Below are positions 46,668 through 54,931 of a DNA stretch of 64,000 nt, in pieces. Positions within the stretch are counted from its first letter, which is position 1. Each line of letters begins with the position of its first letter. The DNA comes from Patescibacteria group bacterium (lineage in GTDB: Bacteria > Patescibacteriota > Minisyncoccia > Phycocordibacterales > PALSA-1337). The translations under genes and the position numbers were made by a program. The stretch is taken from assembly GCA_038065415.1 (NCBI GenBank), contig JBBTRA010000001.1:7894-71893 (forward strand), read 5' to 3'. The notes under the pieces were generated by a model. That model was not told the DNA's origin. It was given only the letters and a program-made list of their open reading frames with translations, and made no database searches.

Positions 46668-46719
46668 AAAGCATGTAGAGACGGTTGCCAATGCGTCGCG
46701 GTGCGCTATACTTACCCGC

Positions 46720-47640
46720 ATGAAACTTCCAACCCCAGCACAGCGCCCGCTCTATATTGGCTTCGGCATCGTCGCGCTTCTATTCATTGCAACTATCACA
46801 TACTCACACATACGGACAAACACACTATCCAAAAGAATCGAAGCCTTGTCTATGGATACTGCAACTCTCGCTTCCAGTCTTGCCTCAACTACCGAAGTGC
46901 TCCGTGCAAGTATCGATCAGACTCACACCAGCCTGACGAGCGCACTGTCAGAAGAACAGGCCAAGGTCAACAGGATCAGGCGAGAGCTCGGCGGGTTCGA
47001 AGACCAAGTAGGCGATCTTTCTGGAACCCTGAATACCCTCCAGAAACTATCTCAGACGGACCCTGAACTCCTCGTCAAATATTCCAAAGTCTATTTCTTG
47101 AGTGAGAACTATGTCCCTATCCGCCTTTCCGAAATTCCGAACAAATACCAATACAGCAATACAAAACAGCTCCTCATTCACGCCGACGTCCTCCCACATC
47201 TCACCACCATGATCGAGGCGGCCTCATCTACAGGTGTGAAGCTCTATGCGTATTCGGCCTATCGTTCTTTTGCTGAACAAAAAGCCCTCAAAGGAAACTA
47301 CACGGTTGCATATGGAGCAGGCACAGCCAATTCATTCTCTGCTGATCAAGGGTACTCGGAGCATCAACTTGGCACCACACTCGATATCATAACTCCAGGT
47401 ATCGGCGGTGTATTGGAAAGTTTTGACAAGACCGCAGCATATCAGTGGATGCTCAAGAATGCCTACAAATACGGGTTTGTGCTCTCATACCCACAGAACA
47501 ATGGATACTATATCTATGAACCGTGGCACTGGCGCTTCGTCGGCGTGAAGCTCGCTACAGATCTGAACAAACAGGGCAAGAATTTTTATGACCTCGATCA
47601 GAGGAAGATCGATGAGTACCTGGTATCGATATTCGACTAG
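46720..47640 (+). CDS. D-alanyl-D-alanine carboxypeptidase, M15B/VanY-like
   Basis: The start is MKLPTPAQRP at 46720, with a TM anchor. The M15 motifs are SAYRSFAEQ, SEHQLGTTLD and EPWHWRFVG. Confidence 0.75.
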   Translation: MKLPTPAQRPLYIGFGIVALLFIATITYSHIRTNTLSKRIEALSMDTATLASSLASTTEVLRASIDQTHTSLTSALSEEQAKVNRIRRELGGFEDQVGDLSGTLNTLQKLSQTDPELLVKYSKVYFLSENYVPIRLSEIPNKYQYSNTKQLLIHADVLPHLTTMIEAASSTGVKLYAYSAYRSFAEQKALKGNYTVAYGAGTANSFSADQGYSEHQLGTTLDIITPGIGGVLESFDKTAAYQWMLKNAYKYGFVLSYPQNNGYYIYEPWHWRFVGVKLATDLNKQGKNFYDLDQRKIDEYLVSIFD

Positions 47641-47652
47641 TGTATCTAGATA

Positions 47653-48366
47653 CTAGAAGTAACGGACTCTCTGCAGATGTCTTTTCTCGTCTTTGATTTC
47701 CGTGCGGGCATGAAGAAAACGGGTGTTATCGAGGAACAAGACCGAACCGCGCGGCAATGACACCGATGTGACACAGGCTGGATTAGCGATCTGCGCATCG
47801 AGCGCATCGAGAGCCTGGATATGCTCAGCTGACAACTCGGATTCGATGATGCACTCTCGTCTATACGCGATGCGATTGCCCTTGAACAAAATCGGGCCCG
47901 TAGAATACTCACGATCCTTCATGAATTCTTTTGGTATTTTGACTTTGACGTCGTGTGCGAGTAAGTCCTTAGTACGCCGATCGAGAAGAGAAAGGATATC
48001 ATCGATATCGATCATCTTACTGATGCCGCCCCCGAACCTATCTGGATGAATCACGTACAGAGCGACATACGGAGGAGGCGGAACTTCAAAAGAACAATCT
48101 GTATGGAATACAAATTCCTCCATCGTCTGTGAGCGAGCCACGGTCTCGGAAGACTCACCAGGCTTTGGTTTGATATCCCATACATATGCATTATTACCAT
48201 TGTGACTATGAGGCTTCCCAACCTTATGGATGAGGGAGAGTACATCGATCTCCTTTTCGAATTGAGCCAAGAAGACCCCATGCTTAGTCATCTCATTTTT
48301 GTACTGTGAGACATCAAAGTCGTTCTGGTCTATATATGTGAAGGTTTTGAGATTATTTTCTTTCAT
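47653..48366 (-). CDS. TauD/TfdA-family Fe(II)/2-oxoglutarate-dependent dioxygenase
   Basis: It has the HxD motif (FHTDCSFE) and a distal His/Arg (FLDNTRFLHAR). The likely start is MKENNLK. Confidence 0.65.
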   Translation of the reverse strand: MKENNLKTFTYIDQNDFDVSQYKNEMTKHGVFLAQFEKEIDVLSLIHKVGKPHSHNGNNAYVWDIKPKPGESSETVARSQTMEEFVFHTDCSFEVPPPPYVALYVIHPDRFGGGISKMIDIDDILSLLDRRTKDLLAHDVKVKIPKEFMKDREYSTGPILFKGNRIAYRRECIIESELSAEHIQALDALDAQIANPACVTSVSLPRGSVLFLDNTRFLHARTEIKDEKRHLQRVRYF

Positions 48367-48367
48367 G

Positions 48368-49561
48368 TCATTTTTCCTGCATAGGCTGTATAAAACGGGC
48401 AAAATCATGCTTATGGGTATGGGATACACGATACAGTCCCGGGCCGAAGAATGCATCATCCCACATAGGAAGGACTCCTGCTAGATACCATTCATTGACC
48501 TTCCGCTTGAGTGGATCCCAAAAACGAAACTTCTTCTGAACTATATATGGCTGAAGCAGTGTATCAGGACGTTTGAGAATAGCTTTCCAAACTGCAGGCT
48601 CCTTTTCTTTGCCGATATATAACCCATCGGCTTTTCCTGAAATCGCTTTCTTCCCTACCCATTTGGATCGATCTTTCTCGGCTTTCGAGAATATTTTTGG
48701 ATGCGTGTCACTCGTATATGTCGGGATCACGAACCCTGTGAGCAAAGCTGTTTCAGATGCGGTCAGATATCTCCTCATGATGCGGACATCTGACAGGACC
48801 GAGAGGAGCCTCTTGTCATGGACGATGAATAGCGTACGCGGGTCATTGAGGATGGTGGTGCCCGATATGATCGCATCACAAATAACCTTCAGGTGTTTCT
48901 CCACCTCATCCTGATGGAGCTCGAGCACTACGGTTGGATACTTTTTGAGAATCTTCTTCAGATCTTTCACCCCGAAAAGTTGTGCGCTCGGATATTCCAA
49001 GAGAAATGAGTGGACATCGTATCCATCTTCACGGTCTTTGATCACAGGCACATCTTGTGTACCAAATCGCTCCTTCATACTGTTTTTGAGATTCTGTATC
49101 CCGCGCATCTGAGAATACATAGGAAAAAGACTTTGGAATGCTTCGTTCATATATATGCTCATGAAGAACCCATTGAAGATGAACCGAGCATTGATCTCAC
49201 ACAAGAGCGGCTGTCCGACTTTCGTATAGATATAATCGGGTCTGATAGCACCGACCCGATATGGACACGAGGATATCCGGCGAAGCTGGGTCGCTACTTC
49301 TTTGGCAAGGGGAACTCTTTTCTGTATATCCGTATCACTGAAATAGTTTTCGACTATTCCGGTAAGTGCTTTGTGAAGAACCCTCTGCACCTGCACAAAT
49401 GTGTCAATCTCCTTCCGTGAATGCACTATCGGAAATGGATAGAACTCATCGGCATATCCGTTGCGAAAAAGTGCTTTGGGAGAGAGCTTCTTGATCAGCT
49501 TGAACCGCGTGTCTACATATCCATCAACTGTGATCGTTTTTGGGATTCGGAAATAGGGCAT
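48368..49561 (-). CDS. Hypothetical protein, possibly an ATP-grasp-like ligase
   Basis: 397 aa. LLCEINARF resembles the ATP-grasp E-x-N metal-binding motif. The evidence is otherwise weak. Confidence 0.35.
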   Translation of the reverse strand: MPYFRIPKTITVDGYVDTRFKLIKKLSPKALFRNGYADEFYPFPIVHSRKEIDTFVQVQRVLHKALTGIVENYFSDTDIQKRVPLAKEVATQLRRISSCPYRVGAIRPDYIYTKVGQPLLCEINARFIFNGFFMSIYMNEAFQSLFPMYSQMRGIQNLKNSMKERFGTQDVPVIKDREDGYDVHSFLLEYPSAQLFGVKDLKKILKKYPTVVLELHQDEVEKHLKVICDAIISGTTILNDPRTLFIVHDKRLLSVLSDVRIMRRYLTASETALLTGFVIPTYTSDTHPKIFSKAEKDRSKWVGKKAISGKADGLYIGKEKEPAVWKAILKRPDTLLQPYIVQKKFRFWDPLKRKVNEWYLAGVLPMWDDAFFGPGLYRVSHTHKHDFARFIQPMQEK

Positions 49562-49573
49562 GATACTACAATC

Positions 49574-49930
49574 TTATTTTTCTGTATTCTGTTTGACCCT
49601 GAACTTCACGATCTTGGTGATCAGTCCGAATGGAATCGGCTTGTCCAAAGGGAATTTGACGGTACCTTTGGATGTTTCGTATTTCGACAGCTCTTTTTTG
49701 AATGCCGCAATAGCACCTGAACCGGGATACAGCCCTATATGATACTCGTATCCCCCGAAGTGGATGAGGTTTCCCTTCAGTACAAAAGTTGGGATACCAT
49801 ACTTGATCGCCTCCTCCGCTTTTGGTGCCGCTCTATGGATAGTCGCACGAATCTGCTGAAGAAGAGCTTGCGTCTTCGCAGGATAGTTCGCAATATAGAA
49901 ATCTATGGTTTTGTAACTCTTCATTTTCAT
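49574..49930 (-). CDS. DUF1801 (YdhG-like) domain protein
   Basis: 118 aa. Starts MKMKSYKTIDFYIANYPAKTQALLQQIRATI, which is typical of the family. Confidence 0.55.
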   Translation of the reverse strand: MKMKSYKTIDFYIANYPAKTQALLQQIRATIHRAAPKAEEAIKYGIPTFVLKGNLIHFGGYEYHIGLYPGSGAIAAFKKELSKYETSKGTVKFPLDKPIPFGLITKIVKFRVKQNTEK

Positions 49931-50036
49931 GACGCTATCTTAGCATGAGTCGTACTATATTGACCTCCCCTCTTCCCGTAGGACAAATCTATACAAATAC
50001 ATCATTGCATGATAGAATTTTCGCAGATACCCTCAT

Positions 50037-50486
50037 ATGAAAACTCGCGCATGGATTCCTTTCGCCCTTGCAGTCGCATGCTTGGCACCAAGTCTGGCAT
50101 ACGCTGAACCGTTTGATTCCCACGATGTAACTCTCGTGGTTCATACCATCGATGACGCAGATGTCCCCGACGTGGTACTGCTCGACGGGAATCTCCGTAT
50201 TCACATGGACACCAATACTCCGATATCCCTCCGGGATCTCGTACTATCATTCCCTACAGGACCAGGGGGTGCTCCATTCTATGAATACCCTCTGCCTCAA
50301 TCGGGGTGGGAAGATTCGGTTCCTGTCATCCTTTGGGATGATACACCGTTCGACCACCCACCCACATCAGCCGGATCTTCGGGAGACGATGAGAGTGTAG
50401 TATGCGAGGTCGTTGTACCAGAACCAACTACAGCGTCACTGCTTCTCTTGGCTGGTAGCACTTTCTTGTTCCGCAGACGTCGGTGA
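50037..50486 (+). CDS. Secreted protein with a PEP-CTERM sorting signal
   Basis: It has a signal peptide. The C-terminus is VVPEPTTASLLLLAGSTFLFRRRR, i.e. VPEP, a TM helix and an Arg cluster. Confidence 0.7.
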   Translation: MKTRAWIPFALAVACLAPSLAYAEPFDSHDVTLVVHTIDDADVPDVVLLDGNLRIHMDTNTPISLRDLVLSFPTGPGGAPFYEYPLPQSGWEDSVPVILWDDTPFDHPPTSAGSSGDDESVVCEVVVPEPTTASLLLLAGSTFLFRRRR

Positions 50487-50572
50487 TTCTATCACCGTAC
50501 AACGCATCAGGCATAGTCTCACACAAGGACTATGCCTGATTTTTATTATAGCGAATGGACTGATTCTGAAAA

Positions 50573-50968
50573 CTACAAAATAGGTTGTCGTGGCTTCTTG
50601 AGTTTGCCACCGAACCATACGAGTGGAAATGCGGTCACCGCGAGAGCTATGGGATACCAGTGCTGTGACAGATCCCAACCGACAACAACGCCAGCAATAC
50701 CTCCGATCGTCCCGAGGACTCCCAGTGCCACAACATGACGCATCGGGTAATTCGGCGCAAGACGAGCAGTCACATAACCTCCAACTACGGCATAGATGCT
50801 CCTATAGATGAATGCCAGTACAAGCATCCATGTCACAAAAAGCCCCACCTCCGTTGGTGCGGGAAAAATACCGAGCATTTCCAGTATCGTGTCGGTGCCA
50901 ATGGAAAGGAATGCCACTGCAGCGAATCCTGCGAGCACTGCACCAATGCTTTTGAAGATGTTTTTCAT
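50573..50968 (-). CDS. Small integral membrane protein
   Basis: 131 aa with four predicted TM helices. Confidence 0.5.
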   Translation of the reverse strand: MKNIFKSIGAVLAGFAAVAFLSIGTDTILEMLGIFPAPTEVGLFVTWMLVLAFIYRSIYAVVGGYVTARLAPNYPMRHVVALGVLGTIGGIAGVVVGWDLSQHWYPIALAVTAFPLVWFGGKLKKPRQPIL

Positions 50969-51022
50969 ATATGTGTATTATACTATACTGCTTCAATATA
51001 TAGCGTGTTAAGATAATTATAT

Positions 51023-51505
51023 ATGAACTCAATACCAAAAAATACAATCTGTCTGTGGTTCGATAAAGATGCGTTCGATGCAGCGACCTTCTATGCAGCC
51101 ACGTTCCCAGATAGCGCAGTAGGTGCCGTTTACCATGCGCCCTCTGACTTCCCCAGTGGTAAGAAAGGTGATGTGCTCACCGTAGAATTCACCGTCTGCG
51201 GGATTCCGTGTATCGGCCTGAATGGTGGTCCAACCTTCAAACAGAGTGAGGCGTTTTCCTTTCAGATCGCGACGGACGACCAGGAAGAAACAGATCGTTA
51301 TTGGAACGCGATCGTCAACAATGGCGGAAAGGAAAGCGAGTGCGGGTGGTGCAAAGATCGCTGGGGACTATCTTGGCAGATCACACCACGCACACTGAGT
51401 GAAGCTTTTGCGGCTGGCGGTGACGAAGCAAAGCGTGCTTTCGAAGCGATGATGACTATGGGAAAGATCGATGTTGCGGCTATTGATGCGGCGAGACGAG
51501 GTTGA
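51023..51505 (+). CDS. VOC/PhnB-like protein (3-demethylubiquinone-9 3-methyltransferase-domain family)
   Basis: It has ICLWFD and ECGWCKDRWGLSWQI, which are typical of the PhnB-like VOC family. Confidence 0.65.
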   Translation: MNSIPKNTICLWFDKDAFDAATFYAATFPDSAVGAVYHAPSDFPSGKKGDVLTVEFTVCGIPCIGLNGGPTFKQSEAFSFQIATDDQEETDRYWNAIVNNGGKESECGWCKDRWGLSWQITPRTLSEAFAAGGDEAKRAFEAMMTMGKIDVAAIDAARRG

Positions 51506-51564
51506 GGCATACTATTTCTCACCATGCGATTAGGGGCCGTAATCACATTACCAGAAGATGCTTA

Positions 51565-52551
51565 TTAGAAATTAGCTTCCAGTTCTTTATATAGATTACC
51601 TTTAATAGCCAGCTCCATGATCCGTATTTCGCTTGTAATAAAATGATTAGCTCGATCTGAATGCTGGTTGTAATACATATCCTCTACCCATGCACTCATA
51701 GCCATTTTAGCAATTCTCATGTGTATACCTCTCATTAATTCTTCTGCACCTATTGAGCACATCGTTCGATACCCTTTCAAAAACTCTTTCATTGCACGCA
51801 AATTCTGATTTAGATCTGTACTCTGCTGAAAACAAATATAGAAAATGGCGCGTGCTACCTCATAGGATCGAGGAGCAAATTCGGTCTTTTCCCAATCACA
51901 TATGCCGATTATTTTTCTACTAGCAGAATCAATCATTATATTCCCCGTCTGATAGTCTCCATGAGTTATCGTGTCATTTGGTAGAAATATGGAATCAATG
52001 TGCTGTAACACGTCAAGCTTAAAATCGATGTATTCCAGCATCAAACCATCGGTCTCATTAGGACTGGTTTTGTCTAAAATCAATTTTCTGAAGTTCCCAA
52101 GTCGGTCACTAATAATTTCGGGTGAAGGCCTGCCGAATTCCTTGATCTTCAAAGAGATTGGAGGGTGTTCCTTGCCGACTATATGTATCTTTCCCAACAT
52201 TGCACCCATGTTTAGATAATCCTCCAAAGAGTAAGCATGACTCCTATCGCTTTCTACATACTCATAGAGAGTATACAGTTCATGATCTCCTGCTACACAA
52301 ATCTCACCTTGAAGCGTCGTTCGCATTGCAATGGCGGGAATCCCCTTCAATTTCATCCACGATTCAATCCCATAAATTTCAGGAATTTTGGTTCGGGATT
52401 TCTCTCTTACTGATTTAACAAAATATCTGCCAGAATCTGTGGTGATTATATAATTTTCATTAAGTACCCCTTCTGCCACAACATCAATTGAAGTATACGT
52501 GCCTAAGCCGTATTGCTCACACACGCGTTTTATATCATCGGGTGAGATCAT
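51565..52551 (-). CDS. APH/choline-kinase-family phosphotransferase
   Basis: It has the Brenner motif (ITHGDYQTGNIMID) and DWEK. GC is about 40%, below the window mean. Confidence 0.65.
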   Translation of the reverse strand: MISPDDIKRVCEQYGLGTYTSIDVVAEGVLNENYIITTDSGRYFVKSVREKSRTKIPEIYGIESWMKLKGIPAIAMRTTLQGEICVAGDHELYTLYEYVESDRSHAYSLEDYLNMGAMLGKIHIVGKEHPPISLKIKEFGRPSPEIISDRLGNFRKLILDKTSPNETDGLMLEYIDFKLDVLQHIDSIFLPNDTITHGDYQTGNIMIDSASRKIIGICDWEKTEFAPRSYEVARAIFYICFQQSTDLNQNLRAMKEFLKGYRTMCSIGAEELMRGIHMRIAKMAMSAWVEDMYYNQHSDRANHFITSEIRIMELAIKGNLYKELEANF

Positions 52552-52688
52552 ATGTTTTGGATTGATACTAAAATTGTAACAAACTTATGTGCTGGCGTCT
52601 TTGAGCAAGAGCCGTAGTCGGTCAAGCCCAGTAAGGTTATCTTTAACACTTTTATCTTACCATTTCGACGGTCTTTGAGCACTCTATT

Positions 52689-53810
52689 TTAGTCGCTTAA
52701 TTTTTCTACAAAATAACCAACTCGCAGCTTGTTTAGACTTAGTAATTCTTTTCTAAACATTTGTATATGAACATTCAAATATTTTTTATCATTTGAAAAT
52801 ACAGACTTTGTTGCATTGAGATACTGACCAAAGTTCACTATTTGTACTAGGCTCGTGTTCTCATTCTCAATGATCCCTCCTTTCCTCTTTGATCTACAAA
52901 AAAATATGGCACGTGTCGGTGAGATCGGCATCATAATCCAGAGATCGTCTTTGTCTATATCCCACCACGCTGGATATTGCAGTATTTCACTTCGGTGGAA
53001 ATCTAAAAGTACAACCGGGTTGTCGGAGATGACAAATCTGTCGTCCATAGTTGCTGGCACGTCAATGATGTGGAAGTTTCTTCTGAAGATCTTTTCAGCA
53101 ATATGAGTGGCGATCTGATTAGATAATGAGCCAATGTGGTTTTTTGCACCAGCTATTTTAAGATTGGATTTGTGTTTTAGAAGATCGTCTATCGTTGCAC
53201 CCAAACCGTTGAGGACAATCTTTTTGTTCATCGATTCGTGAGTTCCTAGATCATCAATAATCAACCCTTTGTTTTCAAAGCAGAAAATCAAATACCTTTC
53301 TATTGCCGAATGAAATGCTGGGACTCGGGTAAGTTGAAAAGCAACAAACACAGCAAGTGTGGATTCCTCTAAGTAAGTTAGTTTAGGTTCTCCAGAAACA
53401 GTATTCAGATACTTGATGACCTGATTCCCGAAGTATTCAAGGTTCTCTGCAAATACTTTCTTCTCTATAAAATCAGATTGTTTACCGTCTTTATCCTTGA
53501 ACAAATAGAAGTCCTTTGCGGAAGCAACACCATTTATGCTTGTTTTCTCTATTTTGGGATTCTCAAAACTAAACTCCCACGCTTGACCCTTGTCAGTGCC
53601 ACTGTCCGCTATTCTAAACCGACGCAATATAAGCTGAGGTACATAGTGGTGTTCCTTATCTGTTTCGTTCGTATTAACGTACTCACCAAAATTTTCAAAC
53701 AATCCCATCAAGAAAAAAAGAGTTTTTGCCGACCAACGACTTTTACCCAGTCTGTATTTGAACGCGAGCAGGGTTATCTTACGTCCGATTTTAGCAAGAT
53801 ATTTTTTCAT
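52689..53810 (-). CDS. DUF4238-family protein (Rst_DUF4238-type candidate anti-phage protein)
   Basis: The N-terminal motif is EHHYVPQLILRRF, characteristic of DUF4238. About 373 aa, with roughly 33% GC. Confidence 0.6.
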   Translation of the reverse strand: MKKYLAKIGRKITLLAFKYRLGKSRWSAKTLFFLMGLFENFGEYVNTNETDKEHHYVPQLILRRFRIADSGTDKGQAWEFSFENPKIEKTSINGVASAKDFYLFKDKDGKQSDFIEKKVFAENLEYFGNQVIKYLNTVSGEPKLTYLEESTLAVFVAFQLTRVPAFHSAIERYLIFCFENKGLIIDDLGTHESMNKKIVLNGLGATIDDLLKHKSNLKIAGAKNHIGSLSNQIATHIAEKIFRRNFHIIDVPATMDDRFVISDNPVVLLDFHRSEILQYPAWWDIDKDDLWIMMPISPTRAIFFCRSKRKGGIIENENTSLVQIVNFGQYLNATKSVFSNDKKYLNVHIQMFRKELLSLNKLRVGYFVEKLSD

Positions 53811-54816
53811 CTTTAAGTGTTTTGTTGTGTCCGCAGGCGAATGCAAAAAAGATACCTTCGGAAGTGTTCTTCGTTTCCATTACCATAAGGGCTGTGCCAC
53901 AGAATGGGCAAGCATCATCGACCAAACTATTTAACTCCTTTGCTTCTGTAGTCTGATCGCCTGATTCTTTTGTTAGTTTTTCTTTGACGAGAACAATCAT
54001 CTGGTCTTTCCACTCCTGCATATTCTTTACAAGTTTGTGATCCACATTTTCGACAATGCCCTCTTTCGTCAAAACTTTGTAACTTGGATCAAGTGTCTTG
54101 CGTGTTCTTCGCTCGTGTCCAAAATATGATGAAAGTAGTTCGTTGTGTGTGAGCACCATAAAATCACCGATATACGAGCCGACACTCATTGCACTCTCGC
54201 TTATTTTTTGAGTTATCTTTTCGACTCCCTTTTGATCCCATTTTCTCCAGTCATGGTTATGCTTGCTGGTGTATGACGATAGTTCACTGATAAGGCTGTG
54301 TATAAGACGTTTTTGATTCTCTATTTCTTTATTCAAAACGTTTTTAGCAGGCAGGATAGGTTCTAGTGCCGCCTCCCAGTCCTCTGTGATGTACATAAAC
54401 TGTAAAAACTTTTCAGAAAACTTTGAGTAATGGCTGTACAGTTCTTGTGTGTACGCCGTCCATTTTTGTTCACCTTCAAAAACACACTCCTGCTCGTTGT
54501 ATGGCAACCACATATCTTTGTACTGTTTTTTCAGTCCAAGTTTAAAAGGAATCATACTAGATTCCATCAAGATAAAAGGTGGACTGCTATGAGCATTTAG
54601 CTTACTGATCGCGTCTTGAGCTTCTTTGTGTATCTGAACAAACTGTTTGTAGATTTCGTATCTGACCTGAATCTTATGTTGCTGTTTAGTACCCCATTGC
54701 TGTATCAAGAGTGCAAAAATCCAACCGATAATAGCAAGAAGGATAGTAACGGTTAAAGTTAGCGTATCAATATTTTCTGAAAGAGTCTTAATATTTTCTA
54801 TTAATAGATTTGTCAT
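53791..54816 (-). CDS. Hypothetical protein with a TM anchor, a coiled-coil and a C-terminal zinc ribbon, overlapping the DUF4238 gene
   Basis: It has an N-terminal TM segment (LTLTVTILLAIIGWIFALLI). The C-terminus reads CPFCGTALMV...FACGHNKT. Its 3' end overlaps the DUF4238 start. Confidence 0.5.
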   Translation of the reverse strand: MTNLLIENIKTLSENIDTLTLTVTILLAIIGWIFALLIQQWGTKQQHKIQVRYEIYKQFVQIHKEAQDAISKLNAHSSPPFILMESSMIPFKLGLKKQYKDMWLPYNEQECVFEGEQKWTAYTQELYSHYSKFSEKFLQFMYITEDWEAALEPILPAKNVLNKEIENQKRLIHSLISELSSYTSKHNHDWRKWDQKGVEKITQKISESAMSVGSYIGDFMVLTHNELLSSYFGHERRTRKTLDPSYKVLTKEGIVENVDHKLVKNMQEWKDQMIVLVKEKLTKESGDQTTEAKELNSLVDDACPFCGTALMVMETKNTSEGIFFAFACGHNKTLKDEKISC

Positions 54817-54860
54817 TTTATTGTTTTCGAACTAGATATCTTTGAGCTAGCTCTTATTTG

Positions 54861-54931
54861 CTGGGGGACTTGGATTCGAACCAAGATACTGGGCTTCAAA
54901 GGCCCATGTCCTACCATTAGACGATCCCCCA
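54861..54931 (-). tRNA. tRNA-Gln (anticodon TTG)
   Basis: Manual cloverleaf fold with anticodon UUG. TGGGGGA/TCCCCCA acceptor, 3-bp D-stem, anticodon loop CUUUGAA, T-arm CTTGG-TTCGAAT-CCAAG, discriminator G. Confidence 0.85.

Follow-up and report, generated by a model that had tools for sequence, protein, structure and literature searches.

What is a segment of unusually low GC content doing directly behind a glutamine tRNA gene in a patescibacterial genome, where did it come from, and what might its genes do? The segment, about 3.3 kb in size, belongs to a 64,000-nt stretch of contig JBBTRA010000001.1, which we call the window, and the island coordinates given here are positions in that stretch. 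It carries a gene for a DUF4238 protein, an overlapping gene for a predicted membrane protein with a zinc ribbon, here called the partner, and a gene for a kinase of the APH family. The explanation that we favour, to which as a whole we would give a probability of roughly 55%, is that a Paceibacteria-like genome of the Patescibacteria or candidate phyla radiation (CPR) acquired the segment horizontally, in a hypervariable slot that starts where tRNA-Gln has its 3' end, and that its core would be a mobile two-gene cassette that travels among CPR genomes inside restriction-modification (R-M) and defence islands. Within this cassette the DUF4238 protein may be the autonomous core, and the partner may be an accessory module that tethers the DUF4238 protein, senses for it or restrains it on the cytoplasmic side of the membrane. 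The features are listed in Table 1.

Between 51.4 and 54.9 kb the GC content is 0.34-0.42 in all 400-nt intervals, and in both flanks it is 0.45-0.57, in agreement with the drop at 51.5-54.86 kb reported in a preliminary description of this DNA. Taken as a whole, the part from 51.55 to 54.86 kb has about 38-39% GC and its surroundings about 50%. The three island genes are intact and all lie on the minus strand. Their GC content and their GC content at third codon positions (GC3) are 0.391 and 0.377 (APH), 0.380 and 0.390 (DUF4238), and 0.384 and 0.401 (partner); in the genes neighbouring the island the values are 0.44-0.55 and 0.47-0.63. In the NCBI annotation the trio appears as a phosphotransferase, a DUF4238 domain-containing protein and a hypothetical protein. 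ARAGORN and Rfam both place a tRNA-Gln(ttg) gene on the minus strand with its 3' end against the island, as had been claimed. Promoter and terminator scans of the island gave fewer sites than shuffled sequences did and were not used.

Relatives of the locus were found through the adjacent DnaX protein, and three contigs, L051, L049 and L050, with 90%, 88% and 86% DnaX identity respectively, were compared with the window. The order Peptidase_S11, Dus, DnaX, tRNA-Gln is common to all four, and in L050 and L051 synteny resumes at a block of VanY, RNase R and Band_7 genes, which in the window lies at 47.6-42.8 kb. In the alignment, the similarity of the relatives to the window ends at the first bases past the 3' end of tRNA-Gln, and the partner, DUF4238 and APH genes are all three absent from L049, L050 and L051. 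The slot between tRNA-Gln and VanY is filled by a single zeta-toxin/AAA_33-like gene in L051 and by NUDIX, Ser-hydrolase, sigma factor and other genes in L050. L049 has, past tRNA-Gln, an AAA_15/AAA_21 ATPase and other genes, including a PhnB-like gene 83% identical to that of the window; relative to DnaX, this copy in the same slot is in the opposite strand. In the window the slot from tRNA-Gln to VanY (46714-47637) measures 7.2 kb (47641-54859), and the low-GC island is its tRNA-proximal part. From the shared upstream synteny, the divergence at the tRNA and the absence of the three genes from the relatives, we conclude that the region is very likely a foreign, horizontally acquired island in a hypervariable slot. 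The same three relatives rule out that the whole low-GC segment is ancestral. The preliminary description had proposed a foreign island at tRNA-Gln, and had named related genomes with the same genes at core GC as the finding that would speak against it; the syntenic relatives lack the segment altogether.

A tRNA gene also lies 2-3.5 kb upstream in five of the 15 GTDB loci of the DUF4238 subfamily described below (L007, L009, L014, L016 and L019). One of these, L019 (3503-7615), comes from another CPR genome, and there tRNA-Gln(ttg) is followed by a gene for a 1053-aa KAP-family P-loop NTPase and then by a DUF4238 remnant, which consists of the C-terminal half only and is overlapped on the other strand by a serine-recombinase zinc-ribbon fragment. 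This arrangement has the look of a defence island that has decayed next to a tRNA gene of the same kind. Together, the comparison of the slot among relatives, L019 and the five loci near tRNA genes give good support to the reading of an island at a tRNA. The window resembles known tRNA-adjacent genomic and defence islands in its abutment on a tRNA 3' end, its deviant composition, its absence from close relatives and the variable content of the slot. It differs from them in that neither the island nor the scanned ORFs (open reading frames) between tRNA-Gln and VanY (47.6-54.9 kb) include an integrase gene, as had been noticed before, and in that there is no duplicated 3' segment of the tRNA; the candidate repeats, discussed below, lie downstream of the tRNA and are marginally significant.

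The 373-aa protein matches the Pfam profile PF14022 over profile positions 2-281 of 281 (E 8.8e-32, 111.1 bits with a cutoff of 27), and its earlier assignment to DUF4238 thus holds over the full length. It had also been said to open with HYVPQLILRRF. The motif HYVPQ in fact comes after an extension of 54 aa and two helices, which is conserved across the homologues of the subfamily, and this conservation supports the ATG at 53810. HYVPQ and SDNPV are invariant in the alignment of the subfamily, which has invariant polar residues. The subfamily has at least 73 cluster representatives, and those with a named source are all from CPR except one (Chloroherpetonaceae).

A single DUF4238 protein from a P2-prophage hotspot of E. 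coli confers strong resistance to T7 (Rousset et al. 2022, PMC9122126), and the sequence of this validated protein (pFR101) was taken as a control from Table S2 of the same paper (PMC9122126). The PADLOC model DUF4238-Pers (PADLOC-DB 2.0.0) recognises the E. coli protein at 2.5e-217 and, at 5e-20, a canonical-type CPR paralogue in L018, but neither the window protein (no match at E<=0.1) nor two further members of the subfamily. A profile comparison (hhalign) with the validated protein covers 272 columns at 20% identity, with a probability of 69% and an E-value of 4.4e-5. This distance and the PADLOC result count against the explanation we favour. The same alignment keeps H-[HY]-x-[PS]-Q and SDNP in register, the E. 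coli counterparts being HHFLSQ and TSDNPV. Given the Pfam match and the motifs in register on one side, and the PADLOC miss and the 20% identity on the other, the sequences place the protein securely in DUF4238 at the level of Pfam, as a distant CPR branch that escapes a standard defence finder.

The protein is therefore no typical Rst_DUF4238, contrary to what had been supposed; we take this to be the DefenseFinder name of the E. coli single-gene system that PADLOC calls DUF4238-Pers. The two are alike in matching PF14022 over its full length, in the N-terminal H-[HY]-x-[PS]-Q, in the (I/V)(T/I)SDNPV motif and in residing in a hypervariable mobile hotspot. The only viral structural match was an uncharacterised protein of Stenotrophomonas phage Smp131, which is a P2-like phage. 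They differ in that the window protein is only about 20% identical, is PADLOC-negative and has the additional conserved N-terminus of 54 aa, in that its clade has an overlapping membrane-protein gene ahead of it, and in that it occupies a tRNA-adjacent chromosomal slot of a CPR host, not a prophage. Both kinds of gene occur in tandem in L018 (5985-8029), 2 nt apart, a canonical one of 322 aa (the paralogue that PADLOC finds) being followed by one of the CPR type with extended N-terminus, of 357 aa.

The stop of the partner gene and the ATG of the DUF4238 gene overlap by exactly 20 nt (53791-53810), close to the earlier estimate. An identical gene order with an overlap of 20 nt recurs in four further places. 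In comparison with the window, the partner and the DUF4238 protein are 78% and 91% identical in L001, 82% and 89% in L043, 52% and 63% in L045, and 44% (a C-terminal fragment at a contig edge) and 60% in L047/48. Equal contig sizes suggest two more pairs, P0002 with P0401 and P0007 with P0063. The flanks vary from locus to locus: those of L001 and L043 contain MmeI-like R-M and SNF2/PLD genes together with an HTH_17 gene that is Xis-like and divergent, a tyrosine integrase and DUF488 are found at L001, L046 and L047, and L045 and L047 have a third gene of 185 aa. The GC content of the cassette is 0.38-0.39 in every locus that carries the pair, whatever its flanks. With L001 and L043 as references, the partner has a ratio of nonsynonymous to synonymous substitution rates (dN/dS) of 0.065-0.079, and DUF4238 has one of 0.028-0.044. 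These values, for which dS is near saturation, indicate strong purifying selection on both genes. Because the order and the overlap recur in differing flanks, the GC content is constant and dN/dS is low, we think it likely that the pair is a co-inherited, selected mobile cassette in one clade, maintained across about 50% sequence divergence and different flanks. The finding that had been named as decisive against a two-gene system was a zinc-ribbon gene that never occurs with DUF4238 elsewhere, and the survey of neighbourhoods found a recurrent pair.

In a tblastn search of the window with the genes of L001, L046 and L047, their integrases included, the integrases matched nothing. Since the integrase and the Xis-like HTH_17 gene seen with homologous cassettes are missing here, the island is probably immobile now. 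It had been thought an old or decayed insertion. The loss of mobility genes fits that description, but both cargo genes are intact and have a dN/dS of 0.03-0.08.

The pairing itself is clade-specific, dispensable and not obligatory, and the evidence on this side weighs against a functional unit of two genes. The 15 GTDB loci of the DUF4238 subfamily (31-49% identity) all lack the partner, and for the partner family, DUF4238 is absent from all of 21 loci from metagenomes. A neighbour-joining tree places two partner-less DUF4238 genes, L044 (68% identity) and L046 (59%), within the paired clade. Gene overlaps are, moreover, common in the compact genomes of CPR. As either family occurs alone, the two genes could be independent neighbours. 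The idea of a two-gene DUF4238 variant thus survives in part: the pair with its overlap is real at L001, L043, L045 and L047/48, but it is the property of one clade. We also considered L044 as a syntenic counterpart of the window and rejected it, only the DUF4238 and DUF1801 genes having a match.

The main rival to our explanation follows from these observations, namely that two independent single-gene modules lie side by side in a defence or cargo island and that their overlap is the product of compaction and co-transfer. Each family is widely found without the other, the partner-less genes sit inside the paired clade, and the E. coli DUF4238 protein works alone. In addition, at least five unrelated proteins fill the position upstream of other subfamily DUF4238 genes at a spacing of 0-13 nt, among them a canonical DUF4238, a DUF5655 protein and three unknown proteins; that these might be cryptic homologues of the partner was rejected, there being no transmembrane (TM) segment and no meaningful match of hidden Markov models (HMMs). 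It is difficult to see, however, why independent modules should keep their order and overlap in unrelated flanks while identity drops to about 60% in DUF4238 and to about 44-53% in the partner. The sole close homologue of the partner without DUF4238 (L023, 76%) is truncated, as if it were decaying once the pair had been broken. We therefore regard independence of the two genes as possible but rather unlikely, and the proposal that the partner acts with DUF4238 as a tentative one. The autonomy that we propose for the DUF4238 protein would follow from the distant homologue that works alone in E. coli and from the persistence of genes of this clade after loss of the partner.

The persistence of partner-less genes also bears on a closer relation between the two proteins, a pair resembling a toxin and its antitoxin or an abortive-infection system, in which DUF4238 would be a toxic effector that the coupled partner holds inactive, for instance at the membrane, until infection. 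The conserved order of an upstream regulator and a downstream effector with overlapping frames would suit such a pair, as would its occurrence on mobile islands that also have an Xis-like gene or an integrase, and the invariant polar residues of DUF4238, which suggest an enzyme. A toxin in need of an antidote should not, however, persist without it as DUF4238 does in L044 and L046, and the partner, with 341 aa and a TM anchor, is unlike known antitoxins. Because DUF4238 survives the loss of the partner, we consider this relation very unlikely.

The partner has one strong N-terminal TM segment (residues about 15-43, hydropathy 2.56) and a C-terminal CPFC...CGH motif (C303, C306, C328 and H330) that is conserved across the family. 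A confident structure model (pLDDT, predicted local distance difference test, 89.7) predicts an N-terminal TM helix, a four-helix bundle and a small beta zinc ribbon. Of the architecture proposed before, the TM helix and the ribbon therefore stand, and what had been taken for a coiled coil is a four-helix bundle in the model. The TM helix is immediately followed by basic residues. By the positive-inside rule, these suggest a topology with the N-terminus outside and the C-terminus inside, which would put bundle and ribbon in the cytoplasm. Homologues of the partner number 56 in 5.8 billion clusters, and the few that have a source name are all from CPR; the partner profile matches 196 representatives in 1.84 billion proteins. 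The family is thus apparently small and restricted to CPR. PADLOC gave no hit on the partner, and none of 10 remote hits that were scanned has an informative Pfam domain. For neither the partner nor the DUF4238 protein did comparisons of fold and domain, solved structures included, return a match informative on biochemistry, a further point against our explanation.

The partner family is modular, with a core of TM helix and bundle, an optional ribbon and an optional tail of 75 aa. The ribbon and the 'GDPKL...HEEHEPLTEH' tail of long-form partners also exist as stand-alone proteins of 120-170 aa (P0281, P0287 and about 40 others), and ribbon and tail can therefore be regarded as an independent module. 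Members of the family without DUF4238 are found directly after AAA_13 or AAA_21 ATPases or RelA/SpoT, and beside AbiEii. PrrC and RloC-type accessory defence genes sit inside type I R-M loci, and AAA_13 is the RloC-type ATPase family. The partner family is like these genes in its siting, inside or after type I R-M operons, after AAA_13, or beside MmeI-like R-M and SNF2/PLD. It differs from them in having no relation of sequence or fold to them and no nuclease or NTPase domain, being a TM-anchored bundle with a ribbon.

Several arrangements of the family may be recorded here. In L053 (3915-13440; also in L054), a ribbon-less member of 310 aa separates hsdM from hsdS within a type I R-M operon (hsdM-hsdS-hsdR) and shares 11 nt with hsdS; the locus also encodes a Bro-N protein and has small ORFs. 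Long-form partners (about 411 aa) in L002/L003/L027, L030 and L031 belong to a seemingly recurrent operon, which may be a separate multi-gene system. Its order is an upstream gene (an AAA_13 ATPase in L002/L003/L027 and L030, a 211-aa ORF in L031), the partner, a protein of 166 or 124 aa, a Zn_ribbon_2 protein (in L002/L003/L027 only) and an unknown protein of 214-238 aa. Two other long-form partners follow their upstream neighbour at 5-6 nt, a RelA/SpoT-domain protein in L026 (1033-3534) and a C-terminal fragment of AAA_21/AAA_15 in L025 (5925-8227).

The DUF4238 subfamily with the extended N-terminus has neighbours of a similar kind: it adjoins R-M enzymes of the Eco57I/MmeI type and N6_N4 methylases, and two of the proteins encoded upstream of its genes look nuclease-like from a reading of their sequences, with no family match. 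In L009 (5022-6884, minus strand) a 620-aa fusion of a LexA DNA-binding domain, an S24 peptidase and an N6_N4 DNA methylase is transcribed divergently from the DUF4238 gene, and in L007, L010 and L014 plain N6_N4 methylases occupy the position of this fusion. By association, both families are residents of defence islands. Protection against phages is therefore a plausible candidate role of the cassette, and one to which we incline.

Three observations should be set against a role in defence. The association was judged by inspection of a few dozen loci, not by statistical enrichment; one member of the partner family (L032) sits among glycosyltransferase and redox genes, not defence genes; and no homologue of DUF4238 or of the partner was found on phage or viral contigs among 50,697 phage records (tblastn) and in pattern scans of IMG/VR. 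The same searches found no relative of the APH gene either, and a phage or viral origin was rejected. Another reading is that the three genes are cargo for niche adaptation or for maintenance of a mobile element, with envelope or metabolite functions and a kinase, for example, in a variable slot. The failure of PADLOC to detect the DUF4238 protein would agree with this, and so would the partner homologue among glycosyltransferases and the accessory genes in the wider slot (TauD-like, DUF1801, PhnB-like 3-dmu-9_3-mt and PEP-CTERM). Such cargo, however, would hardly be expected to lie repeatedly near R-M, ATP-binding-cassette (ABC)-type defence ATPases, AbiEii and a KAP NTPase, as both families do, or to share Pfam-level homology and motifs with an experimentally validated anti-phage protein, and we consider a role outside defence quite unlikely.

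Direct repeats had been reported to bracket the pair. An imperfect repeat of 17-20 nt is indeed present on both sides of the two-gene core, the minus-strand AAATAAGAGCTAGCTCAAAGA (54859-54839) aligning with AAT-AGAG-T-GCTCAAAGA (52687-52671). It is short, however, lies downstream of the tRNA and includes no tRNA sequence, and is not common to the tRNA flanks of the relatives L049-L051. Junction-to-junction scores as high as that of the repeat occur in 4% of shuffles, in 1.4% of the 45-mers of the island and in 0.8% of the 45-mers of the window. The repeats are weak evidence, of marginal significance.

The distal copy of this repeat coincides with the first of two 10-nt direct repeats, GCTCAA(A/G)GAC, that bound a 91-nt element. 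Homology between the window and an unrelated CPR contig, L020, ends sharply at the bounds of the element, which lies just downstream of DUF4238 in the window and in L020 precedes, by about 195 nt, a DUF4238 homologue of 31% identity. A search of 573 kb of sequence with nhmmer found these two copies only, and two pattern scans of viral contigs gave nothing or a chance match in a high-GC contig (L052). It was rejected as a known RNA, neither copy having a match in Rfam. Its folding signal is weak, with z-scores of -1.2 and -1.7 for the strand of the genes and positive values for the opposite strand. A possible small ORF runs through it. In L020 the element has no stop in this frame either, and 5 synonymous and 8 mostly conservative changes separate the two sequences. 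The element might be a small gene, regulatory DNA or a site of recombination. A more ambitious proposal would join two claims: that the family with TM helix, bundle and ribbon is a CPR-restricted defence module which plugs into DUF4238, AAA_13/AAA_21 ATPases, RelA/SpoT and type I R-M and forms a two-component, membrane-associated variant of DUF4238, and that the 91-nt element is an att/attC-like site of cassette exchange behind tRNA genes. That both should hold jointly seems to us doubtful, and we mention it as speculation.

The APH-family kinase at the left edge of the island had been recognised by its motifs, and the assignment stands: the protein matches PF01636 (E 7.3e-17, 62.4 bits with a cutoff of 23.2), and in the translation both HGDYQTGN, of the Brenner form HGDxxxxN, and DWE are intact. 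The Pfam threshold and the two motifs are common to APH/choline-kinase phosphotransferases (PF01636, including ThrB_alt and CotS), from which the island kinase is set apart by scores far below every NCBIfam equivalog cutoff; with the models for type II homoserine kinase (NF003558 / TIGR00938) it reaches 72 bits where the cutoff is 271, and 66 bits where it is 256. There was no sequence match in the PDB at E<=0.001. A role as a defence kinase was rejected, the PADLOC match to STK_OB (E 5.6e-4) covering only 28 residues of the catalytic loop. The gene is absent from all other loci that carry the pair, as it is from L049-L051, and no link to the pair is seen in any of those loci; we regard it as cargo that shares the island and the composition of the pair.

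Table 1. Features of the low-GC island, of the adjoining part of the slot and of the tRNA gene, in window positions
Feature	Position	Strand	Basis and remarks
TauD-like dioxygenase gene	47653-48459		Window slot
Gene for 397-aa protein	48368-49561		Window slot; no Pfam domain
DUF1801 gene	49574-49930		Window slot
Gene for 149-aa protein	50037-50486		Window slot; PEP-CTERM tail weak, below threshold
131-aa ORF	50573-50968		Window slot; no Pfam domain, membrane-protein-like
PhnB-like 3-dmu-9_3-mt gene	51023-51505		Window slot
Low-GC island, very likely acquired	51540..54859	.	Three genes, one small ORF and non-coding spacers; GC profile, gene GC/GC3, absence in L049-L051
APH-family small-molecule kinase gene	51565..52551	-	328 aa; PF01636; left-most island gene
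Possible small ORF, 44 codons	52548..52682	-	GTG start, MLKDRRNGKIKVLKITLLGLTDYGSCSKTPAHKFVTILVSIQNI; runs through the 91-nt element; TGA overlaps APH ATG (ATGA)
91-nt element	52591..52681	-	Bounded by two GCTCAAAGAC copies (52671-52680, 52597-52606); 86% identical to L020 257-347
Divergent DUF4238 gene	52689..53810	-	373 aa; PF14022; 54-aa N-terminal extension, HYVPQ 55-59, SDNPV 262-266
Partner gene	53791..54816	-	341 aa; no Pfam domain; TM, predicted cytoplasmic four-helix bundle, CCCH zinc ribbon
Imperfect junction repeat, tRNA-proximal copy	54838..54859	-	AAATAAGAGCTAGCTCAAAGA
tRNA-Gln(ttg)	54860..54931	-	ARAGORN; Rfam tRNA 65 bits; 3' end faces island; right boundary of island and of lineage-wide hypervariable slot

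How the ultra-small, episymbiotic CPR/Patescibacteria defend themselves against phages is poorly charted, these bacteria offer no tractable system, and PADLOC misses both core genes of this island. The analysis documents a divergent clade of DUF4238 with an N-terminal extension of its own, a small unannotated family of membrane and zinc-ribbon proteins found consistently in R-M and defence neighbourhoods, and a tRNA-Gln-adjacent slot whose content turns over among relatives that are 86-90% identical in DnaX. If the two genes prove to be independent neighbours, the value of these results would be limited to a better annotation of CPR defence islands. As a naturally coupled protein, the partner would offer a concrete handle on how DUF4238 is controlled or localised.

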